A stretch of 64,000 nt of DNA from Candidatus Magasanikiibacteriota bacterium. Its GTDB lineage: Bacteria > Patescibacteriota > Patescibacteriia > Magasanikbacterales > UBA922. Of the stretch, positions 14,648 through 51,568 are shown one piece after another (position 1 is the first letter of the stretch; every line of letters begins with the position of its first letter). Under the pieces are notes generated by a model. The model had not been told where the DNA came from. It did not search any database and worked only from the letters and a program-made list of their open reading frames with translations. The stretch lies in the NCBI GenBank assembly GCA_903837125.1, contig CAILTG010000021.1, positions 11,627-75,626 on the forward strand, in the 5' to 3' direction. A program made the position numbers and the translations under genes.

Positions 14648-15370
14648 TTACTTTGCCAATTCATCGGCTCTTTTTTCAGCTGATTCTAAAACTTTTTTAA
14701 ACATATTCTCTAAATCAAATTTTTTCATCACTACCAGACCAGCTTCAGTGGTACCACCTTTTGAAGCAACTTGCTTAACTAATTCCTCTGAATTTTTTTC
14801 TTGTTGTAAAATTGAGTTAGCGCCATCAAGTGTTGTAAAAAACATTAATCTGGCTTCTTCTTCAGTGAATCCTAGTTCAACCACCGCTTTTAGCCATTCA
14901 GTAACTAAATAATAAAAAAATCCCGGACCACTACCAGACACGGCTGTGGCTTTATTTATCATTTCTTCATTTTTAACTTGCAAAGTTTGACCAAGTTGTT
15001 TAAACAAATTGTCTATCTCATTTTTGTCTTTCACTCCTTCACTAATCCAAACTGTCATAGACTTTTTAACTCTGGCACCAAGATTAGGCATGGCTCGTAC
15101 CACTTTTTTTATACCCAAAACTGATTTAATTTTATTAATAGTAACACCAGCCATAATTGAAATAACTATTTGTTCGTTCAACTGGCCTTTTAATTCTTCT
15201 GCCACTTCTGCAAATGATTGTGGTTTTACGGCCAACAAAATTATCTCTGCCCCATGACAAACACTTTTATCATCACCTTTATCACAAACAATAACTTCGC
15301 AACTTGAAGCCAAAGCTTTAGCAAAAATACTACCCATTACTCCCCCACCAATGATTACTAATTTTTTCAT
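14648..15370 (-). CDS. proC: Pyrroline-5-carboxylate reductase
   Basis: MKKLVIIGGGVMGSIFAKAL Rossmann N terminus, a P5CR-like body, and operon context directly downstream of proB and proA. Confidence 0.75.
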   Translation of the reverse strand: MKKLVIIGGGVMGSIFAKALASSCEVIVCDKGDDKSVCHGAEIILLAVKPQSFAEVAEELKGQLNEQIVISIMAGVTINKIKSVLGIKKVVRAMPNLGARVKKSMTVWISEGVKDKNEIDNLFKQLGQTLQVKNEEMINKATAVSGSGPGFFYYLVTEWLKAVVELGFTEEEARLMFFTTLDGANSILQQEKNSEELVKQVASKGGTTEAGLVVMKKFDLENMFKKVLESAEKRADELAK

Positions 15371-16428
15371 ACAAATACCATTATATTATCAGCATGCATT
15401 ACTTGCAAGCCTTTTTTAGATTTAGCGACTGACAATAATTTAGAATCAATATCCACTTTACCAATCGCCATACTCACTTTATCTTTATCCACCACTTCCA
15501 CCAGTTCATTAGCAGCAAATTCACCATAAACTTTTTTAATACCCACTGCCAAAAGACTTTTTCCAGAAGCCAAGGCCTTAACAGCCCCATCGTCCACTTC
15601 AATGCTGGCAGCTGAAGTTTTGGAAGCCATGAGCCAACGCTCACGATTTTTAATATCACTAACCGATTTCCTCGACAAAAAAGTAGTACCAACCTTCTTA
15701 CCCATTAAGGCAGCAACAATAAACTCTTTTTTCAAACCACTAATAATTTGCACCTCAATGCCAATTGCTGTACAAAGGCGTGCTGCTTTAAGTTTAGAAA
15801 CCATTCCTCCCCGGCCTTTATCAGAAACAGCTCCTGAACAATATTTCATAAGTTCAGCATTCACATCTTTCACCTCAGAAATCAATTCCGCATTTTTATT
15901 ATCTTCAGGATTTGCAGTAAACAATCCCTCAACATGACTTAAAATTAATAATTTATTGGCTTTAAAAGACATCGCTAAAGATGCCCCCAAACTGTCATTA
16001 TCCCCAAAACTCCAATCCGTACCATACACCAAAGCATCATTTTCATTAACAATGGGGATAATTTTATTTTGAAAAGCGCTCTCAATTGATTTTTGTAGTG
16101 CCAAAAAATGCTGGCGTTCTACCAAATGTGGACGAGATAGTAGCAATTCTGAAACAGTTAAACCCAATTTATTAGCCACTTGGTTATACCCAGACATAAG
16201 TTTTAATTGTCCAATTCCGGCAGCTAATTTTTTATCTAATTCTTTGTCTATAAAAAATTTTCTACCCAAAGCTACTGCTCCAGAAGTTACCAAAACAATT
16301 TTTTGCCCTTGTTTTATTTGTTCACCAACAACCTCCAAAATATTTTCAATAATTGAAATACGTAATTCATTATTATCATCAACCAAAACATTACTCCCGA
16401 TTTTTATTATTGTTATATTATTATCCAT
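15367..16428 (-). CDS. proB: Glutamate 5-kinase (with C-terminal PUA domain)
   Basis: IIKIGSNVLVDDNNELR...VLVTSGAVALGR kinase motifs. 353 aa. Overlaps proC by 4 nt. Confidence 0.85.
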   Translation of the reverse strand: MDNNITIIKIGSNVLVDDNNELRISIIENILEVVGEQIKQGQKIVLVTSGAVALGRKFFIDKELDKKLAAGIGQLKLMSGYNQVANKLGLTVSELLLSRPHLVERQHFLALQKSIESAFQNKIIPIVNENDALVYGTDWSFGDNDSLGASLAMSFKANKLLILSHVEGLFTANPEDNKNAELISEVKDVNAELMKYCSGAVSDKGRGGMVSKLKAARLCTAIGIEVQIISGLKKEFIVAALMGKKVGTTFLSRKSVSDIKNRERWLMASKTSAASIEVDDGAVKALASGKSLLAVGIKKVYGEFAANELVEVVDKDKVSMAIGKVDIDSKLLSVAKSKKGLQVMHADNIMVFV

Positions 16429-16447
16429 ACAATAAACGCTAACAAAT

Positions 16448-17689
16448 TTAATTTCTTACTTGTCCACTACCCAAAACTACATATTTGGTCACGGTTAAAT
16501 CTTCTAAACCCATTGGTCCGCGCATGTGGATTGAGGAAGTACTAATACCCAATTCAGCACCTAAACCAAAGATTCCACCATCATTCAAACGAGTAGACGC
16601 ATTAACCATCACTACCGCGCTATTAACCTGTTTAAGAAACTCTGCTGACTTAATTTTATCTTCCGTAACAATAGAATCAGTATGATGAGAACCATGCTCT
16701 TCTATCCAAATTACCGCCTTTTCAAATGAATCTACCACTCCTACAGTAATTATTAAATCCAAATATTCTGTATTCCAATCTTCAGGCTTGGCCAACACAC
16801 ACTTAGAATTATAAGAACAAATTTTTTCATCTCCTCTCACTTGAACACCCAGTTCAACCAAAGTTGCCAATAAAGTTGGCGCCAATTTATCAACAATATC
16901 ACAATGAATTAAAATCTTTTCTAAAGAATTACAAGCAGCCGGATTGGAAACCTTGGAATTAACAGCCAATTCAACTGCCATGACCAAATTTGCCTCTTTA
17001 TCAATATACAGGTGAGTAAGTCCTCGTTCGTGGGCAATTACCGGCACTCTAGCCTGATCTTTAATAAAATTAATTAATTGTTCACGCCCGCGGGGTACCA
17101 CCAAATCAAGATATTTGTCCATTTTTACCACTTCCCCCAAAGTTTCATAACTTCTGTCTTCCAATTGCTGCACAGTATGCTCTGACAAACCAACTTCTTG
17201 TAAAGCCTTCTGAATAAATTTTAATAAAATTTCATTTGAAAAATTCGCTTCTTTGCCGCCCCTAGCCACCAAACAATTACCACTTTTTACACAAAGTCCG
17301 GCAGCATCCACCAAAACATTTGGTCGAGATTCATAAACAAAAAGAATCACCCCAATCGGCACACGTTTTTTGAGAACTACCATGCCATTAGGTCTACCCC
17401 ACTCTTCAACAATTTTTCCCACAGGATCTGGCAGCTTTATCATTTCTCTCAATCCCTCGGCCATGCCTTTAATTGAACTCTCTGATAAAATCAACCTCTT
17501 AAGCAGGACTAGGTTTAATTCTTTTCCCAAATTAAGATCTTTTTTATTCTCAACCAAAATCGCTTCAATATTTTGCAATAACAATTCAGCTAATTTAGCT
17601 AAAAATAGATTTTTTTGTTCTGTGTCAGCTAAACGCATTTCTGCTGAAGCTGCTTTTGCCAAATGCAACTGCTCTTTTGCTTCCAACAT
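16448..17689 (-). CDS. proA: Gamma-glutamyl phosphate reductase (glutamate-5-semialdehyde dehydrogenase)
   Basis: 413-aa aldehyde-dehydrogenase-family protein with a ProA-like sequence (…VVPRGREQLINFI…, catalytic Cys region). Position upstream of proB. Confidence 0.85.
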   Translation of the reverse strand: MLEAKEQLHLAKAASAEMRLADTEQKNLFLAKLAELLLQNIEAILVENKKDLNLGKELNLVLLKRLILSESSIKGMAEGLREMIKLPDPVGKIVEEWGRPNGMVVLKKRVPIGVILFVYESRPNVLVDAAGLCVKSGNCLVARGGKEANFSNEILLKFIQKALQEVGLSEHTVQQLEDRSYETLGEVVKMDKYLDLVVPRGREQLINFIKDQARVPVIAHERGLTHLYIDKEANLVMAVELAVNSKVSNPAACNSLEKILIHCDIVDKLAPTLLATLVELGVQVRGDEKICSYNSKCVLAKPEDWNTEYLDLIITVGVVDSFEKAVIWIEEHGSHHTDSIVTEDKIKSAEFLKQVNSAVVMVNASTRLNDGGIFGLGAELGISTSSIHMRGPMGLEDLTVTKYVVLGSGQVRN

Positions 17690-17832: not shown

Positions 17833-18594
17833 TTAGAACTTTCGTTCTTTCCCTACCACCATCTCAATCTTTTTCTTAGCTAAGTGAATTTTTATTTTAG
17901 TTTCTTTTGACTCTTTACCATCGGCCTCTACTACAAATGGAGTACGACTAAAAACAATCATTTCTTCAAAGGGAAAAATACTCGGATCTTCATATTTCTG
18001 TCGACCAAAAATACCTCTCTTTACCACTGGCCTTAAAAAAGCCTCTAATTTTCCATCTTGTGGATGTACCACTACATCTTCTTTATCTCCCTTCCAAATA
18101 TAAGGCTGCAGATTACAAATTACCAATTCCATTTTTTTACTTTGCGATGACACTTTAAATTTTTCATCATATTCTACGGCAATGTCACTTGGTGGTATAT
18201 GCAATTGAGAGACAAAATAACGATTATTAAACCAGCCCACGTCCAATTTAACTTTACGTCGGCGTGACAAAACATTACAAGCCTCTTCACCAATAGGTAT
18301 ACCCAGTACTTCCGCAATAGTATTATCTCCACCCACAGGCAAAAAACCAAAAGTTATCCCACAGGTAGCAGCACTAGAAAGTACCTGTCCAAAAGTAGCA
18401 TCATTACCCACAATCACAATAGTAGAAGCGCCTTTTTTTATTTCATCTTCTATTACTGCTTTAGAGTTGGTAAAATTTTGCAACCGAACTATCTTACCAG
18501 CAATGCTAAAATCCGTCAACCTAGTCTCAATAGCCCTGAGTGTTGAATCAAATTTCTTATTCTTTAAAAAATTGTCGTAAAGATAAACGTACAT
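17833..18594 (-). CDS. Lipid kinase / diacylglycerol kinase catalytic-domain protein (YegS/BmrU/DAGK_cat family)
   Basis: VIVGNDATFGQV...FGFLPVGGDNTIAEVLGIP matches DAGK_cat motifs. The ORF track begins at a TTG (18600); the ATG is at 18594. Confidence 0.55.
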   Translation of the reverse strand: MYVYLYDNFLKNKKFDSTLRAIETRLTDFSIAGKIVRLQNFTNSKAVIEDEIKKGASTIVIVGNDATFGQVLSSAATCGITFGFLPVGGDNTIAEVLGIPIGEEACNVLSRRRKVKLDVGWFNNRYFVSQLHIPPSDIAVEYDEKFKVSSQSKKMELVICNLQPYIWKGDKEDVVVHPQDGKLEAFLRPVVKRGIFGRQKYEDPSIFPFEEMIVFSRTPFVVEADGKESKETKIKIHLAKKKIEMVVGKERKF

Positions 18595-18602
18595 AAACAA
18601 AC

Positions 18603-18685: not shown

Positions 18686-19153
18686 CTATTGGAGCACTGC
18701 AACATTCTCTTCTTCTCCTTTAACTTTTAACCTACCAAATCCACCTAATTTTTCTTTCTTTTCTGGTTCAATACCTTTCATCAACACCTTGCCATAAATT
18801 AATGCTCCTGGTTCTACTGCCAAAACCTTACAATCAATATCTCCAGCTACTCGAGCGGTAGAAGTTAGTTCCAACTTATCACTAATCTTAACATCACCGC
18901 GCACTTCTCCAGAAATAACCGCTTCTCCGGCTCTAACGTTAGCAAAAATTTTAGCCCCTTTTTCCACAGTCAATCTTTTACTGGTTTTCACGCTTCCTGA
19001 AACTGTCCCCTTCACCACTATATTACCCTCTGATGAAAAATCCCCCTCCACACTTACTGAAGGGCCAACCACTGTCTCCACCTCGTCTTGCGCCTGGTGT
19101 AACTTGTCTTCGTTGTTATTTAAAGAAATGCTGGGCGATGGTTTTTGAAACAT
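18686..19153 (-). CDS. Bactofilin (polymer-forming cytoskeletal protein, DUF583)
   Basis: Repetitive beta-helical G.V.G.V pattern: VSVEGDFSSEGNIVVKGTVSGSVKTSKRLTVEKGAKIFANVRAGEAVISGEVRGDVKISDKLELTSTARVAGDIDCKVLAV. Confidence 0.75.
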   Translation of the reverse strand: MFQKPSPSISLNNNEDKLHQAQDEVETVVGPSVSVEGDFSSEGNIVVKGTVSGSVKTSKRLTVEKGAKIFANVRAGEAVISGEVRGDVKISDKLELTSTARVAGDIDCKVLAVEPGALIYGKVLMKGIEPEKKEKLGGFGRLKVKGEEENVAVLQ

Positions 19154-19216: not shown

Positions 19217-20896
19217 TTATTTAACAACGGCTACCTCTTTATTTTCTACTTTTTCCATAGACAACAAAACCTCTGCTGACGGTTTAAGAGGAATCCAAAA
19301 CCCAAATTCACTCCCCTTTCCTAAACCAGGACTTTTGGCCCAAACCTTACCGCCATGAGTCTCAATAAATTTTTTACAAACAAACAATCCCAATCCAGTA
19401 CCCGTAACATTTATATCTTTAACATTTTCCCCGCGATAAAATTTAGTAAAAAAACTTACTTCATCTTTTTTATCAAAACCCAAACCTTTATCATTTACCT
19501 TTACTTCAACACCTTCCTCACCTTGTTCAACAGTAATCTTAATTTCACCTTTTTCTGTATATTTAATGGCATTATCCACAAAATTAAATATCACATGTCG
19601 TACTTTTTCGTCATCCATGTTAATTGATAATTTTTTAAATTCTGGCTTCCATTTTAAACTCAAACCTTTATCCTTGGCCCTAGCACTTAATTCTGTAACC
19701 ACACCTTTAATTAATTCCACCATATCATAATCATGAAAAACAAACTTGGTCCGGCCTTGTTCAATTCGACTAACATCCAAAAATTCATCAACCAATTTAA
19801 TCAATCTTTCGTTACTCATATCCATATTATCCAAAGTACCCAACAACTCTTTGCTGGCCTTGCCATAAGCGCCATCTTTAATTAATTCAATATAACCTTT
19901 CAAAATAGATAACGGCGTACGTAATTGATGTGAAGCAATTGATAAAAATTCGGTTTTTTGTTTATCCAAGTCTTGAAGACGAATATTGACGCTTTGAAGT
20001 TCTTTGTAAAGAATTTCTAATTGTTCACGTTGTTTAACCTCCATTATTACACTTTTAATTAACCAAATACCTACACTTAAAACTAAAAGAAAAAGACTGC
20101 TTCTAAATATTACAGTAACTAAATCATTAGACATGACAACTTCAAGTAAAATGGCAACAGATAAAATAAAAGCCAATAATTCAGTAGAAATTATTTTAAT
20201 GTTTAAGAAATTATGTTTAATAATGGAGTATCCAGTAAAAAACACAAAAGGAATAACAAATATTGCACCAAAAGGCACAAAGGACGAATTGTTTAAAAAA
20301 GCTGGAAAAATAAAATTAAATATGATAATCAAAACAAAGGTCATTAGTGTACCCCACAAAATTAAACGCAATGAGCCTTTTTCGGTATTTTTTGAATACC
20401 AAATTTTCTTTAACAAAGAAAAAAGAGCAAACATTACCAAACCAACACTAAAAATTCCGAAAATTCCTATCAAAGGTCCGTTTTCTATATTAACGATACG
20501 CCCTTCAGCACTCACTTTGGAGACATGGCTGAAGACCATTGGAGTAAGAGTTAACAAAGAGACTAAAGCAGTACATGGCAAAAGGCCAAATTTATACCAT
20601 TTTTTATACAAAAATGTAGTCTCTGGAAAAACATAAAATAATTGAAAAATAAAAAAAGCCTGCCAAACAGCTGAAAACATTACTAGTCGCACTATCCAAA
20701 ATGCCCAAAACAAAGAGATACTCTGACCATTTAAATAGTTGACTATCCCCCAGAATGAAGTTACTAATGAAAAAAATAAAAATGTATAACTAGTTGAACT
20801 TTTACGATTACTAAAATAAATAACACAAGCCAATATTATTATTGATGAAATTACCAAACCGACAATAAATAAATTAAGATTTATAAGTGTATTCAT
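19217..20896 (-). CDS. Membrane sensor histidine kinase (multi-TM N-terminal sensor domain)
   Basis: About 7 predicted TM helices. H-box SIASHQLRTPLSIL. HATPase NAIKYT ... GTGLGLFVCKKFIETHGGKVW. Confidence 0.85.
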   Translation of the reverse strand: MNTLINLNLFIVGLVISSIIILACVIYFSNRKSSTSYTFLFFSLVTSFWGIVNYLNGQSISLFWAFWIVRLVMFSAVWQAFFIFQLFYVFPETTFLYKKWYKFGLLPCTALVSLLTLTPMVFSHVSKVSAEGRIVNIENGPLIGIFGIFSVGLVMFALFSLLKKIWYSKNTEKGSLRLILWGTLMTFVLIIIFNFIFPAFLNNSSFVPFGAIFVIPFVFFTGYSIIKHNFLNIKIISTELLAFILSVAILLEVVMSNDLVTVIFRSSLFLLVLSVGIWLIKSVIMEVKQREQLEILYKELQSVNIRLQDLDKQKTEFLSIASHQLRTPLSILKGYIELIKDGAYGKASKELLGTLDNMDMSNERLIKLVDEFLDVSRIEQGRTKFVFHDYDMVELIKGVVTELSARAKDKGLSLKWKPEFKKLSINMDDEKVRHVIFNFVDNAIKYTEKGEIKITVEQGEEGVEVKVNDKGLGFDKKDEVSFFTKFYRGENVKDINVTGTGLGLFVCKKFIETHGGKVWAKSPGLGKGSEFGFWIPLKPSAEVLLSMEKVENKEVAVVK

Positions 20897-20925
20897 GTTA
20901 TTATTATAACACGTTTTATAAAAAA

Positions 20926-21978
20926 TTACTCAAAAATTATTTTTGGTTCCATTTTTGAAGACCTGTCACTTGGTTCTCCACCATAACCAACACGAAAAAG
21001 TAGAGGTATTATTTTATCCTTAGCATTATAAAACTTACAAATAGTGCTATAAGCCATTTTAACTTCTTCAACCTGTTTGACCGTAAAACCTTCTGTTTCT
21101 CCACCCATAATTCTTTGCATAAAAAATAACGCCCCAGTTACTGGATGAAGACTTAAACCCATTTTTGTCGCCTTTAACCAAATTCTCTCAAATAAACGTC
21201 CAGCTTTTACAAAACTCTGAATTGAATTATCATCAATCAAAATTGCTCCAATTACCGCAGATTTAACATAAACCTTTGCATTCTCGTTGGCCACAATTTT
21301 ATGAAAACCCAAATAACTAAAAAATTTCATCACCGGCCAGTGACTAAAAGCCTTAAAAATCGCCGTAACCACAGGGTTCATTTCTAAAGTTTTTACATAC
21401 AAGCCGGTCTTTTTCTCCAATTCTTCCCGTTTGCTCCAAACAGTATGATGAAAAAATATGTTATGCAATTTCTTTACAGTCAAAACTATTTTTTCATTTA
21501 TCCCAGACACTCTAACAATAACACGTTTTTCCTTTTCATCTTCAATTAATTTTAACTCTCCAAAACCAATCTCTTTAACTGCCGACAATAATTCCTCTTT
21601 TTGTTTCCCAGTCAACATTTTATCCTCATAAGGTTTTCGATTAGTACATCTAAGACTAACAAAATCATTAAGTTCATCAATTTCTATGTCTTTTTTAATC
21701 AAATCCAACACAGCCACCAAATTTCTATCGTGCTCGTCAGGAAATAAACTTACATTGGTTTCATAACCATAGCTTGTAGCCACAATTTTAATATTCTCGA
21801 TAATACAACCATGTGCAATATAAGAACCTTTCTGTTCATAATTATAAAAAGGAATATCTCTTTCCGCTAAATTATAAACATAAATTTTATTTTCTCTAAC
21901 CTTAAATTGCCACGGCTGTGAATTATCTCCGGAAGGAGCATTAACAGAAGCTTTAATAATTTCTCCAAAAATATTCAT
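20926..21978 (-). CDS. Two-domain nitroreductase-superfamily protein (SagB/ThcOx-type dehydrogenase-like)
   Basis: N-terminal SAPSGDNSQPW motif typical of nitroreductase / SagB-type FMN oxidoreductases. ~350 aa, consistent with a tandem nitroreductase fold. Confidence 0.55.
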   Translation of the reverse strand: MNIFGEIIKASVNAPSGDNSQPWQFKVRENKIYVYNLAERDIPFYNYEQKGSYIAHGCIIENIKIVATSYGYETNVSLFPDEHDRNLVAVLDLIKKDIEIDELNDFVSLRCTNRKPYEDKMLTGKQKEELLSAVKEIGFGELKLIEDEKEKRVIVRVSGINEKIVLTVKKLHNIFFHHTVWSKREELEKKTGLYVKTLEMNPVVTAIFKAFSHWPVMKFFSYLGFHKIVANENAKVYVKSAVIGAILIDDNSIQSFVKAGRLFERIWLKATKMGLSLHPVTGALFFMQRIMGGETEGFTVKQVEEVKMAYSTICKFYNAKDKIIPLLFRVGYGGEPSDRSSKMEPKIIFE

Positions 21979-21988
21979 ATATTTAAGA

Positions 21989-23143
21989 TTATTTTTTACT
22001 CATGATTTTTATAAATTTTATCGTTTCTTTTAAACGATAAACCTTTTGGCTAAATCTTTTATAATCACTTTCAAATATTTTATCCAAATTAATCTGATAA
22101 CGTCCGGATTTTATTTTTTTTCCATCAACCAAAATTTTTCTGATTAAATAAGCTAGAGCCGTACCACATAAATTTGCCGCCGTACCCAATTGCGGCCAAG
22201 AATACAAAGACTTCCCTACTTCCACTACCGATTGTTGCATTCGTGAGGTAGCCAAAGTTGCCCCCGCAATCTTGGCTGCCACTCTCGGCAGATCTTTAGG
22301 ATCTAAATTTTTGAATTGATCAAGAGAAATATCCCCAGCCAAACCATTAAAAATCTTCTGTTTTTTGTTTGAATCATATCTTTCAATATCCACAAAAATA
22401 TTATCACCATTATCAGTAGCCATTAAGACCGGAATTCTTGCTTCTTGAGCTAAAAATCTAGACTTAAATTTAAAATAAGGATTATCCATTTCTTCAATCA
22501 AAATATCTAATTTCGAATTCAAAATAACTTCATCAATATTTTCCTCAGTCAATCCCTGTAGATAAATTTTAATATTAGCGTAAGGATTAATTTCAAAAAT
22601 TTTTCTGGCTACCGCAACTGTTTTGGGTAAACCTAAATCATTTACACCTATTCTAATACGATTTAAATTAGAACCAGAAATCGAATCAGGATCCACTAAT
22701 ACAAAATTTTTAGCTCCACCAGTCATGGCAATGGTTAAAGCCGCATGACTGCCAACACTCAGACCCAAGACACCAACAGTAGCAGAATAATACTTTTCCT
22801 GTTCTTCTTGGGTAATCAAAAAATGATTGCGACCGGTACGCATTTCAAAATGTAAATTTTCCGGCAAAACATGAACCAAAGTATTTATCCATGGGAAAAA
22901 AAACCAATTTCCCCACTCATCAAACTCCTTACCCTCACGCATTTTATTTACAAACAATTTCTGTTCTTCTTGAAAATTCTTATTAAATCTATATTTTGGA
23001 TTACGCAATAAAAAAATTTCTTCCAGTTGTTCTCTACAAGTATCCACTATCACCAATTCCTTTCTGACGGAAATAAAAGAAGACAGCTGGCTAAAACTCA
23101 ACCAGTTAGGCTGCCACGATTGGCGATCAACTTTTTCTTGCAT
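21989..23143 (-). CDS. ThiF/HesA/MoeB-family E1-like adenylyltransferase with an ~110-aa N-terminal extension
   Basis: Rossmann segment ATVGVLGLSVGSHAALTIAMTGGAKNFVLVDPDSISGSNLNRI, characteristic of E1-like ThiF-family enzymes. Confidence 0.55.
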   Translation of the reverse strand: MQEKVDRQSWQPNWLSFSQLSSFISVRKELVIVDTCREQLEEIFLLRNPKYRFNKNFQEEQKLFVNKMREGKEFDEWGNWFFFPWINTLVHVLPENLHFEMRTGRNHFLITQEEQEKYYSATVGVLGLSVGSHAALTIAMTGGAKNFVLVDPDSISGSNLNRIRIGVNDLGLPKTVAVARKIFEINPYANIKIYLQGLTEENIDEVILNSKLDILIEEMDNPYFKFKSRFLAQEARIPVLMATDNGDNIFVDIERYDSNKKQKIFNGLAGDISLDQFKNLDPKDLPRVAAKIAGATLATSRMQQSVVEVGKSLYSWPQLGTAANLCGTALAYLIRKILVDGKKIKSGRYQINLDKIFESDYKRFSQKVYRLKETIKFIKIMSKK

Positions 23144-23147
23144 ATAT

Positions 23148-24659
23148 CTATTTTTTTACCCATTTCTGTTTTATACCCGACCTAAAATGAGTTAAATCCT
23201 CATAGGGCCAAAATACTATTTTAGGAAATACTTTATGTCCTTTATCCTCATAAGTGCGCCGATATTCAGAATTTTCTTTTAACAACCTATCAAAAACAAT
23301 TTCACCAACCAATTTATGTAAATCACTAGTCTCACTAACCCCAGATTTTAATTCAACATTAATTTCTAAACATTGGTTTAATTTATCATCATCTATTACC
23401 AACATAGTAAACTTACCAGTAATTTTGTCTTCTAAAACATCCTCTTGCAAAGCTCTTCTGACAGTTTCCGGGTAAATATTGAAAGCATAAAAACTAACCG
23501 AAAAATCTGATCTTTCAAACACATAAACAAAAGGTAAATTCCAAACAGTAGAATTTAATTTGGCTTTGCCAATTTCTTGTTCTAATTTTATACCAGAGGC
23601 TAAAAATTTATCCTTAATTTGAGAAAAAGTATACATTCCACCATGATCGTGTAAATCATAGCGAACCAAAGGCAACCCACTATAAGCTGAACATAACAAA
23701 TTCCCTTCTTCATTTTCAAAATAGAACATTTCTGGAAGAAACTGCGTAAGTGTGGGTGTCTTAGTTATATCGCCAAAAATATCCTTATACAATGGCTCCT
23801 TAGCCAACGCCATTCTGCGAATAAGTATTGAAGCTGGCGTTTCATGAGACATAGTTCCTAAATCTACGGTGCCATAATGATTCAGAGTAGTAGTGTAGGG
23901 ATTTTTTAATCCAGTCTTTTTAATTACATAATCGCGAAAATTTTCACTAAAAGCTTCAGCTGAAAATATAAAACCCAAATTATATTTTTTCCAATCCAAA
24001 CCCTGTCTGATTCCATCATCTAATGTATCCTTTAAAAAAGGAGCATAGGAACCAATAATAATCTGATCAAATTTATCTCCAAATTTTTTTACCGCTTTTA
24101 TAATTTCATTTTTATCAATGCTCGTAGTGATAATACTCAAAGGATATTTACCTTCCTCTGCTATGAGCCTAATAGCACTAAAAGTAAAAACCCCCCCAAT
24201 CCACGGACCCATTGGAAAAGCGTCTATATAAAGAGTAGACTTTTTATGAATTTGAAAATTTGTTCTTAAATACATCTCCGCAGTTCTAGCATACTGAAGA
24301 TCTTGTTCCTCTTCTCTAGGAAAATAAAAAGGCTCACCGGTAGAACCTGAAGTTGATGAAATAGTCCAACGCTTATCTTTTAAATTACCATCCCAACACA
24401 ATTTTTCTAAATCATAAATTTTTAAATAATTATGTTTATCAATTTTTGGAAGAAATTTAAAATCTTCTATAGTTTTTATTTTAGCAACAGAAATTTTATT
24501 CTTTTTTAAAAAATCTTTATAAGCAGGCACTCTCTCGGCCATGGAATAAAAAAGACCTAAAGCCATTTTTTGACCTCTTTTTATCCAAAAATCTTCATCT
24601 TCTTTCTTTAATTTTTTCAACAACAATACTGGATCAGTAAAAATTTTAGACAAATACAT
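23148..24659 (-). CDS. Adenylate-forming enzyme of the PaaK / coenzyme F390 synthetase / CapK family
   Basis: Motif TISSTSGSTGEPFYFP (a P-loop-like AMP-binding motif variant of the PaaK family). ~500 aa. Confidence 0.65.
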   Translation of the reverse strand: MYLSKIFTDPVLLLKKLKKEDEDFWIKRGQKMALGLFYSMAERVPAYKDFLKKNKISVAKIKTIEDFKFLPKIDKHNYLKIYDLEKLCWDGNLKDKRWTISSTSGSTGEPFYFPREEEQDLQYARTAEMYLRTNFQIHKKSTLYIDAFPMGPWIGGVFTFSAIRLIAEEGKYPLSIITTSIDKNEIIKAVKKFGDKFDQIIIGSYAPFLKDTLDDGIRQGLDWKKYNLGFIFSAEAFSENFRDYVIKKTGLKNPYTTTLNHYGTVDLGTMSHETPASILIRRMALAKEPLYKDIFGDITKTPTLTQFLPEMFYFENEEGNLLCSAYSGLPLVRYDLHDHGGMYTFSQIKDKFLASGIKLEQEIGKAKLNSTVWNLPFVYVFERSDFSVSFYAFNIYPETVRRALQEDVLEDKITGKFTMLVIDDDKLNQCLEINVELKSGVSETSDLHKLVGEIVFDRLLKENSEYRRTYEDKGHKVFPKIVFWPYEDLTHFRSGIKQKWVKK

Positions 24660-24665
24660 AATTCA

Positions 24666-25736
24666 TTATAAATACGAAGAGATAATATTTTCTGCTATTT
24701 CATCGGCTAAAATGTTGGGGGCTTTATTTTTTTCCTTTGATTCAGTAAAAATCATATCCAAACTGGCAGCAATATTATCAATTTTTTTAATAATTCTACT
24801 TTTGTCATGCTCCTCATTCTCATATTGGTCCACCACGCTCATAATACCCGCCCCATTAATAATAAAATCCGGTGCGTAAAGTATGCCTCTTTTATGTAAT
24901 AATTCACCCGTTTTTGGCTCATCAAGTTGATTATTAGCTGAACCGGCAATAATTTTACACTTTAATTGTGGCACCTTGCCACTGGTAATAGCATGGCTTA
25001 AAGCGCAAGGACAATACACGTCAACATCTTGTAAATATATTTTTAAAGGACTAATAATTTGTACTTTAGGAAACCTTAATTTTGCTAACCATGCTCTATG
25101 AGCATTAATATCTGTAACATAGATTTTGTCAGCTTTTTCCTTCATTAAAAATTTAAGCAACGGCCACCCAGTCTTACCCAAACCCTGAATCGCAAAACTG
25201 TGGCCAGCAATGTCTGTACTACCATAAATATGTTTTAAAGCCACTTTTATGCCTGCCAAAACCCCTATAGCCGTAAAATAACCTGAGTCTACTCCTGTAC
25301 CAATCATAAAAGAACTTTCAGAGTGCATAATATCCAAGTCCTTATTAGTTACACCTACGTCAGTGCCAGTCACAAACGCACCCATCAATTCATTTACCTT
25401 TTGAGCATAAACCTTAAATAACTGCTTGCGATTTGCCTGAGCCGTAGAATTATCAATTAAAGCAGCCTTTGCACCAGTATATGGCAGACCGGCTAAAGCT
25501 GACTTATAAGACATTAAACGTGAAAGACGCAAAGCATCACGCAAAGCCTCATGTTCATTTTGGTAATTCCAAATTCTGGTGGCACCCAAAGCAGGAAATT
25601 GCTTACGATTACGATGTATAGCTATATAGCCTTTTAAACCCACACTTTCATCTTCAACTTTAACCACTTTGTAGTGATTGTCATATTCTGGAAACATTTC
25701 TAAATCCTCCTTGGATAAGATTTTAGTTTCACTCAT
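24666..25736 (-). CDS. Amino-acid dehydrogenase of the Glu/Leu/Phe/Val dehydrogenase family (Leu/Val/Phe-DH-like)
   Basis: …LPYTGAKAAL… catalytic-lysine region and …AIQGLGKTGWPLL… NAD-binding GxGxxG. 356 aa. Confidence 0.7.
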   Translation of the reverse strand: MSETKILSKEDLEMFPEYDNHYKVVKVEDESVGLKGYIAIHRNRKQFPALGATRIWNYQNEHEALRDALRLSRLMSYKSALAGLPYTGAKAALIDNSTAQANRKQLFKVYAQKVNELMGAFVTGTDVGVTNKDLDIMHSESSFMIGTGVDSGYFTAIGVLAGIKVALKHIYGSTDIAGHSFAIQGLGKTGWPLLKFLMKEKADKIYVTDINAHRAWLAKLRFPKVQIISPLKIYLQDVDVYCPCALSHAITSGKVPQLKCKIIAGSANNQLDEPKTGELLHKRGILYAPDFIINGAGIMSVVDQYENEEHDKSRIIKKIDNIAASLDMIFTESKEKNKAPNILADEIAENIISSYL

Positions 25737-26830
25737 ACATTTTTGATATCAAGTGTTCCCACTACATCATTGATATTATTATACCCATCCTTATTTAAAA
25801 GCTTAATTAATTCTTTATTTATTTTTTTTATAACCAAGGGCCCGCCATAAATCCACCCAGTAATCAGTTGTACGGCTGTGGCTCCAGCCTTTATCTTAGC
25901 ATAAGCATCGTCAGCCGTAAATATTCCACCAACTCCGATTATTTTTAATTTTCCTGCTGAACGCTGGTAAACATAACTGATTATCTCGTTACTCTTATCT
26001 TTTAAGAGAGCGCCAGATATACCACCAGAATGAGTTAGTTCCTCTGGATTGGATTTAAATTTAACTCCACTCCGATCTTTAATAAGATTAGAGATTACTA
26101 AACCAGTAATTTTATTGGCCAAACAAGTTTCAATAACTTCGTCTAATTCCTGATGACTGAAATGCGGACCAATTTTAAAATATATATCTTTTTTTATATT
26201 TTCCAAATCCATCTTCTGTCTCACGGCTTCAGCTAATTCTTTAATAAAAGAAACTTGAGCAAACTGCTCACAACTAGCTACATTCGGACAACTCACATTT
26301 AAAGTCACATAATCTGCAAATTGTTGCAGTGCTAAAAAGGTTTTAAGATAATCTTCAGTCATTTTTGCTAATTCTAAGCTTGTGGTAGGAGCAATACTAA
26401 TTCCCAAAGGTACAGCATGTTTTAAGCCAGCTAATTCTTGAATAGTTTTTTCTGCTCCAGCATTGCTTAAACCATAATTTACGATTAAACCATTATCTTT
26501 TGGTATGCGCCATAAACGCGGCTTAGGATTGCCTGATTGTTCCTCATAAGTAATAGAACCTAATTCAGCAAAGCCAAAACCAATCATGGAATAAGCCAAA
26601 GGCGCGTCTATATATTTATCAAAACCAGCGGCCAAGCCAATAGGATTTTCTAATTTCCAACTTCCTAAATGCACTTTTAATTTTTCACTGCCTAATTTAA
26701 AAAACTTTGACAATAACCAATTAAAAATTTTAATTCTGCTTACCAAACCCAAACCTTTAGCCACTATTACATGAATTTTTTCTGGATCAATCTTAAAAAA
26801 TAAAGGGCGTATTATATATTTATAAAACAT
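25733..26830 (-). CDS. pyrD: Dihydroorotate dehydrogenase, class 2 (quinone-dependent, membrane-associated)
   Basis: NPIGLAAGFDKYIDAPLAYSMIGFGFAELGSITYEEQSGNPKPRLWRIP....IVNYGLSNAG aligns closely with E. coli PyrD, including the class-2 N-terminal extension. Confidence 0.85.
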   Translation of the reverse strand: MFYKYIIRPLFFKIDPEKIHVIVAKGLGLVSRIKIFNWLLSKFFKLGSEKLKVHLGSWKLENPIGLAAGFDKYIDAPLAYSMIGFGFAELGSITYEEQSGNPKPRLWRIPKDNGLIVNYGLSNAGAEKTIQELAGLKHAVPLGISIAPTTSLELAKMTEDYLKTFLALQQFADYVTLNVSCPNVASCEQFAQVSFIKELAEAVRQKMDLENIKKDIYFKIGPHFSHQELDEVIETCLANKITGLVISNLIKDRSGVKFKSNPEELTHSGGISGALLKDKSNEIISYVYQRSAGKLKIIGVGGIFTADDAYAKIKAGATAVQLITGWIYGGPLVIKKINKELIKLLNKDGYNNINDVVGTLDIKNV

Positions 26831-26833
26831 ACT

Positions 26834-27328
26834 TTAAAAATCAGCCACATGGTATTCATGCATTAGATAAATATCGGAAATTAACATAATAATTGAAAGC
26901 AATAAAGAACCAAGACAATAACTACAAAGAAAACCAATCAAAGCTATCTGTACATAAAGTAACCATAAAGAAAACAAAACTGCCACAGTGGCTAAGACTA
27001 GAAGCAGAACCAAAACTTCTGCTAAATTTTTTTTATACAAAAGATAAGAAAATATTAAAGACAAACATAAATAATAAACCAACCCCAAAACCGCCACTGG
27101 TACATGCCAAATTGCGGCATACTGGCTACTGCCAACTTTTCCGCAATTTATGATTCCGCCATGCAAGGGACAAACATCACTGGGATGATAGTATTCATAG
27201 GTGAGAAAACTGGCATCAAACATTCCTAAAATTCCAATTAACAAACCAAGCACTAAAAACCACTTTGGCAAAGTTTTTTTCCAATGTTTTTCTTTAATAT
27301 AATTTACCAATTTGGTATATATGGCCAT
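26834..27328 (-). CDS. Vitamin K epoxide reductase (VKOR)-family membrane protein
   Basis: Loop CPLHGGIINCGKVGSSQYA (Cys pair plus S.Y) and a TM CxxC (LCSYCLG). 4-5 TM helices. The ATG is at 27328; the ORF track uses an upstream TTG. Confidence 0.5.
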   Translation of the reverse strand: MAIYTKLVNYIKEKHWKKTLPKWFLVLGLLIGILGMFDASFLTYEYYHPSDVCPLHGGIINCGKVGSSQYAAIWHVPVAVLGLVYYLCLSLIFSYLLYKKNLAEVLVLLLVLATVAVLFSLWLLYVQIALIGFLCSYCLGSLLLSIIMLISDIYLMHEYHVADF

Positions 27329-27337
27329 AATCAATAA

Positions 27338-29073: not shown

Positions 29074-29760
29074 TTATAAATTTGTATTATTTAACTTGTG
29101 TTCCCAATAAGCTCCTATAAAAACAACTATTGCTAATAACAACGCAAAATGACACAAAACCGAAGGGAACATAATATTAAAATAAGGAAAAATTACCATT
29201 AAGATAAAAGTCGGCAATGACATTAGCAGTACAGCCACCGGTAACATAAGAAAAACTTTTCTTTTTTTATTATTTTTTTCAGAAAAATAATATTTAAGGG
29301 CGATAAAACAAGCAAAAATTGTAACCAACGCATAATAAGTTACATAGGCTAACCATAAGACAAAATTATAATCTTGACTGAAAATATATCTCGCCGTTAC
29401 AAAAATTGCATTACACTGTCCTACTTGTACAAAATTTGTAGTAAAAATAGCAATCAAAGAATACACCACCGGAAAAAAATACAATAAAAGTCTATGTCTT
29501 TTTATTTTAAAATAAGTTAGTGTCATATCCAAACCCATAGCTGGCAAAAAACTATAAGTTATAAACCCTGCCCTTACCCAAAGTTCGGCATTACCGGTTT
29601 TACATAACATGAATTCAGTAAACTGATAAAAGCCCAACAAAAATAATAATAAAGCAAAAAAATATTTTAAACTAGCCTTGGGAAATTTCCAAGGCATGAT
29701 GATTGATAGCCCGAGTTCAATTACGGCCGTTGTTAGAGAAACAGTTGAATTAAAACACAT
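29074..29760 (-). CDS. Hypothetical polytopic membrane protein (6-7 TM helices)
   Basis: Hydrophobic 228-aa ORF tightly packed between argS and tyrS. No motif recognised. Confidence 0.45.
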   Translation of the reverse strand: MCFNSTVSLTTAVIELGLSIIMPWKFPKASLKYFFALLLFLLGFYQFTEFMLCKTGNAELWVRAGFITYSFLPAMGLDMTLTYFKIKRHRLLLYFFPVVYSLIAIFTTNFVQVGQCNAIFVTARYIFSQDYNFVLWLAYVTYYALVTIFACFIALKYYFSEKNNKKRKVFLMLPVAVLLMSLPTFILMVIFPYFNIMFPSVLCHFALLLAIVVFIGAYWEHKLNNTNL

Positions 29761-46387: not shown

Positions 46388-49300
46388 TTAGCCAACTAAT
46401 AAATTTATATGCTGTAGTTCTAAAGGCAAACCGCCAGCATTTATGACACTACCGCTAGCATTTCCTTCTGCGGAAATATTATTTATTGTTGCAAACATTT
46501 CTGGTACTTGTGCTTCAGATAAAATATCTGCCCGCAGTTCAACAATTACTCTTTGATCTTTATTTAAGACATAATTTAGATTATCTATTACTACATTACT
46601 ACCTGAAAGAGTTATTTGTGAACCAATAGGTTGTCCATCAATAAATAAATTTAAGCCAGAAATATTTTCAAATCCACTAATATTTAAACTTAAATTATTT
46701 ATTTTTACATCCTCAACTTTTGGTTCTAACTCAAATCTTCCTAAAACAATACCAATAGAACCCGTGGCCACACTTGAAATCTCTAAAGGTTGGCCAAGAT
46801 AGACATCTAAAGTCCCCAAATTAGTTGGCACTGTTAAACTAAGATGCTGCAATTCCAATGGCAAACCGCCAGCATTTATGACACTACCACTAGAATTACC
46901 TTCTGCAGAAATATTATTTACAGTCACAAACATTCCTGGTACCTGTGCTTCTGGTAAGATATCTGCCCGCAGTTCAACAATTACTCTTTGATCTTTATTT
47001 AAGACATAATTTAGATTATCTATTACTAGGCTACTCCCTGATAGAAATACTTGTGAACCAATAGGTTGTCCATCAATAAATAAATTTAAGCCAGAAATAT
47101 TTTCAAATCCAGTAATATTTAAACTTAAATTATTTATTTTAATATCTTCAACTTTTGCCTCAAGTTCAAATCTTCCTAATACAACAGCGTTAGAACCAGC
47201 AGCCGTACTTGAAACCGTTAAAGGTTGACCAAGGTAAATATCTAAAGTGCCACTACTGCTCACTGGCGCTAAGGCATTATATTCCGCTGTAATCTCGGCA
47301 TCAGTTAAAACTCGCTTATAAAATTTAATTTCATCCATAGAACCAGAGAAGAAGTAATTATTATTATAACTTCCCACCAGAAGTGGAGAATTATCATTCT
47401 TTACCGCACCGGTTTGTGGCTGTTCACCAACTTTTACACCATTGGCATAAACGCGAATCATACTACCATCATAAGTAAGGACAATGTGATTCCATTGGGA
47501 CGTTTTAATTACGTTAGGTGTGTCAAAAACCACGCGAACATCAGACGCGTTGGTGATGCCGGTACGTAAACTGCCGTCATTGGAAATAGTTAATTCATAG
47601 TTAAGCTCTTTGGTAGCAACTACAGCATATTGATTGGAGAAAGATTCCGGCTTGATCCAAGCTTCCAAGGTTAAGGCTTGACCTGGCTCAAGATATTCAG
47701 AATCATTGGCAGTAATTAAATCATTTGTGCCGTCAAATTGCAGAGCAGTACCAGAAATGCCAAGAACATTCGCAATAGGACATTGATCTCCCGAACATCC
47801 TAGAGGAAATAAAGAAGCTGTATCAAAAAACTTGGTTGAATTAGCCGGCTCATTTAATTTATACTCAAAACTATTAATATCAATTGGAACTGGCTTAGAA
47901 TTATTATATTCTGTAGCAATTTCTTCATCTGTCAAAACACGTTTATAAAATTTAATTTCATCTATTGTGCCAAAGAATGGATAATTGCTATTGTAATTAC
48001 CAACTAATAGAGGCGTATTATCATTTTTTATAGCACCAGTCTGCACTTCCTCACCAACTTTTACGCCATTGACATAAGCCCGGACCATACTGCCATCATA
48101 AGTAAGCACAATGTGATTCCATTGGGACAACGTAACTACATTAGGAGTATCAAAAACTACCCGAGTATCAGCCGCATTGACAATACCTGTACGCAAACTA
48201 CCATCATTAGAAATAGTCAATTCATAATTAAGTCCCTTGCTAGCAACCACAGCATAATGATTAGAACTTGCATAAGGTTTGACCCAAGTTTCCAAAGTTA
48301 GGGCTTGACCCGGTTCAAGATATTCAGAATCATTGGCAGAAATCAGATCATTTGTGCCGTCAAATTGTAATGCAGTACCAGAAATACCAGGAACATTCGC
48401 AGTAGGGCATTGATCTCCCAAACAAGCTAAAGGAAAAATTGAGGCCTGATCAAAAAATTGATTTGATCCAACCGGTTCATTTAATTTATAGATCAATTCA
48501 TTATCAACAACTGGAACCGGTTTCAAATTATTATATTCCGCCATAATCTCAGCACCAGTTAAGGTTTGCTTATAAAATTTAATTTCATCAATTGTGCCAA
48601 AGAATGGATACCTATCATCACCTAAACTACCAACTAACAATGGGGTACTATCATTCTTTATGGCACCGGTCTGTGGCTGTTCACCTACTTTTACACCATT
48701 GACATAAGCGCGAATCATACTACCATCATAAGTAAGTGCTAGATGATTCCATTGGTACATTTTTACTACATTATATGCATCAACAGCCGCACGTATGTTG
48801 GAGGCATTGGTGATACCCGCACGCAAACTACCATCATTAGTAATAGATATTTCATAATTAAACCCTTTAGTAATGACCACGGAATAATAATTGGAACTGG
48901 GCTGAGGTTTAATCCAGGTTTCCAAAGTAATTTGGTCTGTTGCTGAAATAATTTCGTTGTTATTAATATAGGTAAAATTATTTACTCCATTGAATTGTAA
49001 AGCTTTCCCAGAAATACCTATTACACCTGCCTCTGGACAATAACTAGCGCCACAACCCATCACTAAACCAGAAACATTATCAACAAAACTAGTGCTACCA
49101 GATTGCTCTTCGAAACTATAAGCTAAATTAATAACACTTGGAGGAACAACTTTTGAAACATTTACCGGTCCCAACCAATCTCCACTACTAGTTAAATTTC
49201 CATCATTATCAACTACTACGACAAGATAATAATATATTCCAGAAGTAACATTGTCCGTATAAGAAACCATAGCCATATTTGTGGAAGTGTTGATTGGTGA

Positions 49301-50524: not shown

Positions 50525-50679
50525 ATGATTAATATTAATTTTTAATAATTTATAATTCCCTCTATCCCCAACCCTAATTTTTTAAGATTGGGTGAGAAAT
50601 AATTAATCAATTATATTCGGACTTAAAAATGTTTCTATACCACCATTCTCCAATCCTTTAATTAATCCTTTCAAACTTT

Positions 50680-50964
50680 CTAAATATATATATATTTATC
50701 AATACTCTCATCAATTGGTTCAATATTAATACGATATTTATAATAATATTTTATTGTTTGATCATTACTATCTGGAATTTTTCCACCATATTTTTCGGAA
50801 TTATAAAGTTCATTTTCTTTGATATTGATACTTAAAAGGGCAGATTCAACAACACCAAATTTACCAGCAACGCCCACAATCAAGCTTGCTACATTTATTT
50901 TCAATGTTTCTCTGTCACCAGAATAGTTGACAAATAATTCGCAGTTTAAATTATTAGCACTCAT
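50680..50964 (-). CDS. Small hypothetical protein downstream of the RHS toxin and immunity gene (possible second immunity or accessory protein)
   Basis: 94-aa ORF 11 nt after the upstream ORF. No motif recognised. Confidence 0.35.
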   Translation of the reverse strand: MSANNLNCELFVNYSGDRETLKINVASLIVGVAGKFGVVESALLSINIKENELYNSEKYGGKIPDSNDQTIKYYYKYRINIEPIDESIDKYIYI

Positions 50965-50975
50965 AATTAAATTAT

Positions 50976-51563
50976 TTAGTCATCCACTTCCATAGAAATA
51001 CCACGTTCAACAAAAAAATCTTGAACACTTTTTAATACAAGTTCTTTTTCTCTTTCACGTCCCACGAGTTGGACATTACCAACGTCATCTGCAAACAATA
51101 AGTAATTAACTGAATCCATGTTTCTTTCACCAAGTTTAGACATGAGACCTCTCAAAGTAAATTCTTTTGTACCAGCCATTTTTTTAAAATACTCTAACAG
51201 TACTAAATTTTCCTTATTATCCACAATCATATACATACTTTCATGCGGTATTTCATCCACGTAATGTTGCAATGTCTTTTCATCATAAACATCAACTACA
51301 TACAACAATCTGTGCATGTTCAAAATTCTGTGAATAAAAGCAAAAAATATATTACCAGAATAAAGAGGAAATTCTTTATACTTATCTAACACTGGATAAT
51401 AGTAATTACTTGCAATAATCTTCTTCTCTTTTAATTCATCACAAAATAATTTTATAAAAGAAAACCGATTAAAAGAATCTGAAAAATATTCCTGAACAAC
51501 GAACTGCAAATCAAACAAACCTGCTTGATTATTGGTAACTTTATACTTAATTAATTTTTCCAT
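50976..51563 (-). CDS. Putative immunity protein for the RHS C-terminal toxin (hypothetical 195-aa cytoplasmic protein)
   Basis: Starts 6 nt after the RHS toxin stop. Size and position are typical of a cognate immunity gene. No known family recognised. Confidence 0.45.
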   Translation of the reverse strand: MEKLIKYKVTNNQAGLFDLQFVVQEYFSDSFNRFSFIKLFCDELKEKKIIASNYYYPVLDKYKEFPLYSGNIFFAFIHRILNMHRLLYVVDVYDEKTLQHYVDEIPHESMYMIVDNKENLVLLEYFKKMAGTKEFTLRGLMSKLGERNMDSVNYLLFADDVGNVQLVGREREKELVLKSVQDFFVERGISMEVDD

Positions 51564-51568
51564 ATAAT

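Follow-up and report, generated by a model that had tools for sequence, protein, structure and literature searches.

The oxazolone/N-acyl-dehydroamino-acid pathway has been known only since 2021 and has so far been described in Pseudomonadota, Actinomycetota and Planctomycetota. The architecture at its core, a ThiF-like enzyme combined with a flavin-dependent oxidase (FDO), is that of an acyl-oxazolone synthetase, as in OxzB, TyzB together with TyzC, and TrzS; in these characterized pairs, the ThiF part adenylates an N-acyl amino acid at its alpha-carboxylate and cyclizes it to a 5(4H)-oxazolone, and the FDO part desaturates the C-alpha/C-beta bond with its flavin (PMC10404671, PMC12856293, bioRxiv 10.1101/2020.06.11.147165). 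According to a 2025 review of ThiF proteins, no ThiF-like enzyme other than OxzB is known to act on a small molecule, and Planctomycetes clusters consisting of a synthase, a ThiF protein and a nitroreductase go together with N-acyl-dehydrotyrosines, no oxazolone derivatives having been seen there. Here, we analyze a five-gene module on the minus strand at positions 19217–25736 of a 64,000-nucleotide stretch (the window) of contig CAILTG010000021.1, from a Candidatus Magasanikiibacteriota bacterium of the Candidate Phyla Radiation (CPR, or Patescibacteria). The module encodes an ELFV-family dehydrogenase, a PaaK-like enzyme, a ThiF-like protein, an FDO and a histidine kinase (Table 1), and we propose, with a probability of about 0.55, that it represents a CPR-specific variant of the acyl-oxazolone/N-acyl-dehydroamino-acid pathway.

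The TrzS/TrzA system of the Actinomycetota (Mycobacterium tuberculosis and M. smegmatis, N-acyl tryptazolone) resembles the window in its Acg-type FDO and in a ThiF part with the same adenylation motifs and N-terminal extension (PMC12856293), but differs in that TrzS is fused whereas the window genes are split, in that the CPR partner is a PaaK-fold ligase plus a dehydrogenase instead of the acyl-coenzyme A (acyl-CoA)-dependent TrzA, and in the seven-transmembrane (7TM) kinase which the CPR module adds. TyzB and TyzC of the M. tuberculosis TyzA/TyzB/TyzC system (Rv2336–Rv2338c), which makes acyl-tyrazolones, are separate adjacent genes as in the window (PMC10404671). The Tyz system and OxzA/OxzB of Pseudoalteromonas rubra share ATP-dependent cyclization and flavin-dependent desaturation with our model (PMC10404671, bioRxiv 10.1101/2020.06.11.147165); both, however, employ an N-acyltransferase of the FeeM/N-acyl-homoserine-lactone-synthase fold and fatty acyl-CoA, and both come without a dedicated dehydrogenase, aminotransferase or lyase. 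The PRK14852-type protein WP_011176612.1, encoded on plasmid pDV of Nitratidesulfovibrio vulgaris Hildenborough, is a 989-aa FeeM–ThiF–nitroreductase fusion that unites the three classical activities in a single chain, paralleled by ELFV–PaaK–ThiF and ThiF–FDO fusions in CPR; it differs in carrying FeeM N-terminal to ThiF, where the CPR proteins carry the PaaK-like domain, and in a ThiF part lacking the W.Y.PW extension.

Table 1. Genes of the five-gene module in the window
Product	Position	Strand	Length (aa)	Basis of assignment
ELFV-family amino acid dehydrogenase, Leu/Phe/Trp dehydrogenase clade	24666..25736	-		Pfam ELFV_dehydrog_N + ELFV_dehydrog
Divergent PaaK-fold adenylate-forming ligase	23148..24659	-	503	fold-level assignment
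ThiF-like ATP-dependent cyclase, homolog of the Rv1355c/TrzS N-terminal half	21989..23143	-	384	NCBIfam NF005901
FDO, proposed C-alpha/C-beta desaturase	20926..21978	-	350	C-terminal part of the NCBIfam Rv1355c model
HisKA_7TM sensor histidine kinase	19217..20896	-		Pfam HATPase_c, HisKA, HisKA_7TM

The ThiF–FDO pair and the conservation of the cassette

The three core open reading frames (ORFs) are present as three consecutive minus-strand genes, exactly as given in the initial annotation, which had been made from the letters of the DNA alone; in these, Pfam recognizes a nitroreductase N-terminal motif, a ThiF domain and, for the PaaK-like protein, no family. From the kinase to the ELFV gene, the intergenic gaps are 29, 10, 4 and 6 nt, all on one strand, and the kinase, across its 29-nt gap, is co-transcribed with the cassette. 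Promoter and terminator scans were uninformative in this AT-rich sequence, every candidate being intragenic and the counts approximating the shuffle expectation.

The ThiF protein matches NCBIfam NF005901 ('Rv1355c family protein') with 295.5 bits at model positions 33–345 of 722, and the FDO matches positions 377–711 of the same model with 168.2 bits. As the two proteins thus match adjoining parts of one model, they are the split halves of the known Rv1355c/TrzS-type fusion enzyme. Consistent with this, the ThiF protein aligns over its whole domain with a mycobacterial Rv1355c-family protein (L086; 34% identity, E 4e-47), an alignment which takes in the N-terminal W.Y.PW extension, the one noticed initially. 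The adenylation motifs (GL-SVG, D.D...NLNR, K, EE.D) are kept. The FDO aligns over the whole C-terminal half of L086 (19% identity, E 1e-18) and shares with it an LH...W motif (H172, W181). In the described enzyme TrzS, Asp217 is a conserved residue of the ThiF adenylation motif, and Arg540 and Gln651 are the desaturase residues that were tested (PMC12856293); any mapping of the latter two onto the window FDO is unreliable at 19% identity. Further matches of the window FDO are to PRK14851, in its C-terminal half (231 bits, the top match), and to the Acg family (131 bits); the FDO has the single-chain, two-lobed organization of Acg and adjoins ThiF, and among solved structures Acg (2YMV) comes closest to both FDOs. 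The SagB-type classification suggested initially was therefore replaced by Rv1355c/PRK14851/Acg, no SagB-type or thiazole/oxazole-modified microcin (TOMM)-docking model of NCBIfam having matched and the fold agreeing with the new assignment. In addition, fused CPR ThiF–FDO orthologs align end to end with the Rv1355c model; the closest scores 534.2 bits, above the cutoff of 476, and three others score below it (452, 381 and 377 bits).

Homologs of the PaaK-like protein number more than 2,000, of which the top 120 are 58–67% identical and all named ones belong to CPR/Patescibacteria; a profile search at E<=1e-30 gave 765 representatives at 50% identity. Scanning a single genome for each species yielded 128 relatives, and the best 80 loci, all from CPR-type metagenome-assembled genomes, were annotated over +/-10 kb with phmmer and hidden Markov models (HMMs) built on the fly, 56 of them having enough flanking sequence. 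ThiF adjoins the PaaK-like gene in all 56. In 41 the FDO is adjacent as well, seven of these loci having a ThiF–FDO fusion, and in three more it lies 4–8 kb away, beside the kinase. The genes are thus co-conserved across CPR loci. This co-conservation is not just an ascertainment artefact, because a reverse start from FDO homologs showed the PaaK-like gene and the kinase alongside in four of four loci; ThiF was found in all three FDO-started loci with upstream sequence. Median identities to the window proteins amount to 56% (PaaK-like), 44% (ELFV), 40% (kinase), 36% (ThiF) and 23% (FDO). The PaaK-like enzyme is the most conserved cassette member, and its ~56% identity across lineages is unusually strong conservation for genomes which shed most accessory genes. 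The module extends over Microgenomates-, Parcubacteria- and Saccharibacteria-type lineages; the gene table of the cultivated Saccharibacterium Southlakia epibionticum holds no ThiF or phenylacetate-CoA-ligase entries, and the module is apparently absent there.

Several cassette genes also occur as fusions, namely PaaK–ThiF (P0230, P0231 and P0232, mutually 46–51% identical), ThiF–PaaK (P0360), ELFV–PaaK (P0299), ELFV–PaaK–ThiF (P0342, 1242 aa), ThiF–FDO and FDO–alpha/beta-hydrolase. Because these independent, diverged fusions link the enzymes in a chain, they provide strong evidence that all of them, including the dehydrogenase, would work in one pathway. The metabolic link to the upstream Leu/Phe-type dehydrogenase, offered initially as an alternative explanation, is supported by the ELFV–PaaK fusions and by the position of the ELFV gene, which lies directly upstream of the PaaK-like gene in 33/33 loci across at least six gene orders. 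An HsaD/BphD/enol-lactonase-like alpha/beta-hydrolase lies between FDO and kinase in 17/80 loci, as a separate gene in 11 and fused to the FDO in six; it is absent from the window cassette.

The HisKA_7TM kinase is present in 53/56 loci. It follows a cassette gene on the same strand in 62/72 cases (median gap 10.5 nt, 11 overlaps), and where the FDO is displaced it takes the kinase along (L013, L049, L068). The HisKA_7TM match of the window kinase (25 bits) is just under the Pfam cutoff, which its homologs pass. A receiver-only CheY-like regulator occurs in 49/80 loci, where its gene comes directly behind that of the kinase or flanks the dehydrogenase or aminotransferase gene on the outer side.

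Some of the loci carry unexpected taxonomic labels. One contig of 3.8 kb (L093, JAWCNK010000189.1), binned as 'Candidatus Jordarchaeaceae archaeon', encodes an ELFV dehydrogenase, a PaaK-like protein 61% identical to that of the window, a small methyltransferase and a HisKA_7TM protein, with no ThiF or FDO between ligase and kinase; most likely, this is a CPR contig that was binned wrongly. Of the 80 loci, thirteen stem from third-party annotation bins titled 'uncultured Gammaproteobacteria bacterium' and one from a 'Polyangiaceae' bin, all with CPR-like gene content. One of these is a complete chromosome of only 0.94 Mb (OZ246401.1), and the bin names seem to be placeholders or mistakes.

The PaaK-like enzyme and the deamination slot

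The initial assignment of the 503-aa protein to the PaaK family holds for the fold and the ANL core motifs (P-loop, C-terminal catalytic Lys), the protein having a PaaK-type two-domain fold, but not for family membership by sequence. No Pfam family was matched at E<=0.01, the score against TIGR02155 was 20.6 bits (cutoff 646), the best NCBIfam match, FlxY, was weak (29 bits, cutoff 520), and the sole PDB sequence match had an E of 0.024. The protein is a separate, unnamed PaaK subfamily. Its structural relatives include CoA ligases and CoA-independent ligases alike: the top two matches are the putative acyl-CoA ligase BT_0428 (4R1L) and 2-hydroxyisobutyryl-CoA ligase (6HDW), and NatL2 and ClxA are within the top four. 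The latter two, from the nataxazole and closoxazole pathways, set the precedent for CoA-independent ligation in the PaaK fold (PMC7204872, PMC9400959). They differ from the CPR protein in sequence (identity <17%) and length (the CPR protein is ~70 aa longer), in their aminohydroxybenzoate substrates and in the accompanying cyclase, an amidohydrolase making benzoxazoles and not a ThiF protein (PMC7204872, PMC9400959). A second, divergent PaaK-like subfamily (479 aa, 29–31% identical to the window protein) occupies the same cassette slot in two loci, L090 and L092; the pattern-based genome scan would miss this subfamily, and the module is therefore more widespread than the 128 loci found.

Searched by jackhmmer with the N. 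vulgaris FeeM domain, neither the window nor 85 CPR loci yielded a FeeM-type synthase, nor did Pfam scans of the flanking genes reveal one. When the PaaK–ThiF, ThiF–PaaK and ELFV–PaaK–ThiF fusions are set against the FeeM–ThiF–nitroreductase protein, the PaaK-like enzyme is seen to sit in the FeeM position, and from this we infer that it may fill the role left by the missing FeeM-type N-acyl amino acid synthase.

The ELFV protein has leucine dehydrogenase 3VPX (246 bits) and tryptophan dehydrogenase 5B37 (207 bits) as its best solved relatives and matches the NCBIfam ScyB-like model with 264 bits, under the cutoff. ELFV is found in 25 of the 56 loci and a class I/II aminotransferase in another 25, both together in none; the slot is filled by an AspAT/aminotransferase-A-like class I enzyme in Saccharimonadia and by a HisC-like aminotransferase in Paceibacterota. 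In L090, it is filled by an aromatic ammonia-lyase, which matches the FlxA tyrosine ammonia-lyase best (610 bits versus 449 for HutH, under the family cutoff) and which co-occurs with the divergent PaaK-like subfamily. The first slot is thus kept by function, the removal of an amino group to give a carboxylic acid, and not by homology. The common outcome is a 2-oxo or coumarate-type acid, and such a deaminated acid would therefore be what the PaaK-like enzyme acts on and what donates the acyl group, in place of the classical fatty acyl-CoA. A similar arrangement is known from flexirubin biosynthesis, in which the tyrosine ammonia-lyase FlxA is paired with a PaaK-like ligase, FlxY, activating the deaminated aryl acid; FlxY, however, is annotated as a putative acyl-CoA ligase and would feed a polyketide synthase, and the pathway has no ThiF, FDO or kinase.

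A proposed pathway and competing explanations

Taken together, these results suggest a model, to which we give somewhat better than even odds, in which CPR bacteria use a variant of the oxazolone pathway with a deaminase and PaaK-like front end. The ELFV dehydrogenase, or elsewhere an aminotransferase or lyase, would deaminate a hydrophobic or aromatic amino acid to the carboxylic acid. The PaaK-like enzyme would then adenylate this acid and couple it to another amino acid at the amino group of the latter, independently of CoA as in ClxA and NatL2, and this ligation would replace the acyl-CoA-dependent acyltransferase FeeM/OxzA/TyzA/TrzA. The ThiF protein would cyclize the resulting N-acyl amino acid to an oxazolone, which the FDO would desaturate, and in some lineages the alpha/beta-hydrolase might process the azlactone ring, which it could open or transfer. 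Finally, the 7TM kinase, with a CheY-like regulator in many lineages, may sense the product or a precursor or may control the pathway. The order of reactions from ELFV through the PaaK-like enzyme and ThiF to the FDO, the substrates, the CoA-independent formation of the amide and any role in signaling are read from gene content and domain architecture and are accordingly proposed here as predictions.

Full-text literature searches returned nothing that describes this combination of genes, or oxazolone chemistry, for CPR. An undescribed peptide, cofactor or small-molecule pathway had been considered initially; new are the front end of deaminase and PaaK-like enzyme, the coupling to the kinase and the spread across CPR, whereas the core oxazolone chemistry was already known. 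CPR/Patescibacteria make up a large share of bacterial diversity, have minimal genomes and have almost no small-molecule biosynthesis assigned to them. If the model is true, the oxazolone/N-acyl-dehydroamino-acid pathway would extend to this group, and a CoA- and fatty-acid-independent route to N-acyl amino acids would add an amide-forming member to the PaaK family; CPR are expected to have little lipid or acyl-CoA metabolism, and such a route could suit these organisms. The present analysis also corrects the current labels of the genes, which read 'phenylacetate-CoA ligase', 'ThiF family adenylyltransferase', 'nitroreductase' and 'hypothetical'.

Several observations weigh against this model. 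Each of the split window proteins scores under the curated Rv1355c cutoff, as does their sum (295.5 + 168.2 = 463.7 versus 476 bits). Identity of the FDO to the mycobacterial FDO half is no higher than 19%, and V180 stands opposite the candidate equivalent of TrzS Arg540, in an alignment which is uncertain at this identity. The FDO is missing within 10 kb in ~11–12 of the 56 loci, so desaturation is not universal, and the characterized FDOs require O2, while many CPR are anaerobes. The order of domains in the fusions is no proof of the order of reactions. CoA ligases are what the PaaK family is mainly known for; the analysis covered 64 kb here and +/-10 kb at each other locus, and elsewhere in the genome an unlinked acyltransferase might take up a CoA thioester. 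With regard to the kinase, its linkage could mean regulation instead of product sensing, and no response regulator adjoins the window cassette, the nearest lying at 1612–1986.

The strongest competitor takes up the ligase question: the PaaK-like protein would be an ordinary aryl- or 2-oxo-acid CoA ligase feeding an unlinked N-acyltransferase, with the same end product and no new ligase chemistry. The two best structural matches (4R1L and 6HDW) are of the CoA-ligase type, and in flexirubin biosynthesis a lyase is likewise paired with a putative acyl-CoA ligase. We nevertheless regard this explanation as unlikely, given the lack of any FeeM-like gene in the window or the 85 loci, the fusion of the PaaK-like domain to ThiF and ELFV in diverged proteins, none of which includes a transferase domain, and the finding that the PaaK-like gene replaces FeeM and is not added to it. 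Quite improbable, in our estimate, is a metabolic or salvage cycle in which N-acylation, desaturation and hydrolysis would move nitrogen or free a 2-oxo acid, to be re-aminated by ELFV or an aminotransferase, the kinase being there for regulation only. ELFV dehydrogenases and aminotransferases are reversible, a hydrolase is present in 17/80 loci, and the module is widely kept in genomes with minimal metabolism, all in line with such a cycle; yet a tyrosine-ammonia-lyase-like enzyme, of a type taken as effectively irreversible, can fill the first slot, cyclization by ThiF has no role in the cycle, and the adjacent regulators are receiver-only, without a DNA-binding domain.

Two further explanations start from the E1-like character of the ThiF protein. 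A sulfur-carrier or other E1-like system (ThiS/MoaD, ubiquitin-like, or Cap2 of the cyclic-oligonucleotide-based antiphage system CBASS), in which ThiF would adenylate the C-terminus of a protein, possibly the kinase or regulator, appears highly improbable. Matches to ThiF, MoeB and TcdA models reach at most 73 bits, and those to generic E1–E2 models of PADLOC at most 42 bits, far under the 295 bits of the Rv1355c family; no ThiS/MoaD-like, E2, JAB or rhodanese gene recurs in the loci, and as the other cassette proteins gave no PADLOC match, anti-phage defense was rejected as well. [quoted passage not shown] ThiF/E1-like proteins and nitroreductase-fold oxidases do co-occur in TOMM clusters, and the N-terminal extension of ThiF could in principle bind a peptide, but machinery of this kind was rejected at both the sequence and the fold level. 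The absence of YcaO and of a precursor peptide, noted from the outset, was confirmed: no YcaO was found among the genes from 9142 to 30945, and the cassette junctions (median gap 2 nt over 278 junctions) are too tight for a precursor peptide or other small ORF.

Within the oxazolone model, the product may possibly serve as a signal. The tight coupling of the kinase is compatible with the hypothesis that it senses the pathway product and equally well with regulation; HisKA_7TM domains have no ligand on record, and the model, if true, would supply a testable ligand–receptor candidate for this class of 7TM histidine kinases. An extended version, which we consider doubtful and put forward tentatively, envisages CPR-wide chemical signaling by a two-amino-acid oxazolone or dehydro-N-acyl amino acid made without CoA, for which the kinase would be the dedicated receptor acting through the receiver-only CheY-like regulators, for example to steer attachment, pili or growth on the host cell. 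If correct, it would give these ultra-small symbiotic bacteria their first autoinducer-like system and their first HisKA_7TM ligand. In the quorum-sensing pairs CqsA/CqsS and LuxM/LuxN, a synthase gene for a small hydrophobic molecule lies beside that of a polytopic sensor kinase; neither the synthases nor the sensor domains are homologous to those of the CPR module, and the comparison is one of analogy only.

Further kinase genes and the neighborhood of the cassette

A second, shorter histidine kinase (363 aa) is encoded on the plus strand at 516–1986, followed 5 nt on by a receiver-only regulator (124 aa), the only one detected in the window, which could partner the cassette kinase. A stand-alone HisKA_7TM protein at 29074–29760 (minus strand), located between the genes for ArgRS and TyrRS, was considered as a sixth component and rejected, no counterpart having been found in 85 related loci. 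This protein (228 aa, 32.6 bits, above the Pfam cutoff) has no kinase domains and hardly resembles the cassette kinase's sensor domain (E 0.003 over 57 aa).

At 25733–27334 (minus strand), the genes directly upstream of the cassette encode a dihydroorotate dehydrogenase of class 2, which is quinone-dependent (NF003652, 338 bits against a cutoff of 267), and a VKOR-family protein; VKOR or PyrD also occurs near the cassette in L011, L016, L018, L019, L024, L049 and L082. To our knowledge, CPR genomes are commonly reported to lack quinone biosynthesis and a respiratory chain, and two quinone-linked proteins beside the cassette would be unexpected if quinones are indeed absent. A link between these neighbors and the electron acceptor of the FDO would be pure speculation.

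Just downstream of the module, a full proline biosynthesis set (ProB with a PUA domain, ProA and ProC) is encoded at 14648–17689 (minus strand); amino acid biosynthesis genes are generally held to be uncommon in CPR genomes. A bactofilin (18686–19153) and a DAGK-like lipid kinase (17833–18600) are encoded between the proline genes and the module. Two very large ORFs of 1378 and 2633 aa at 46388–59470 (minus strand) may encode surface or adhesion proteins, which are common in episymbiotic CPR.

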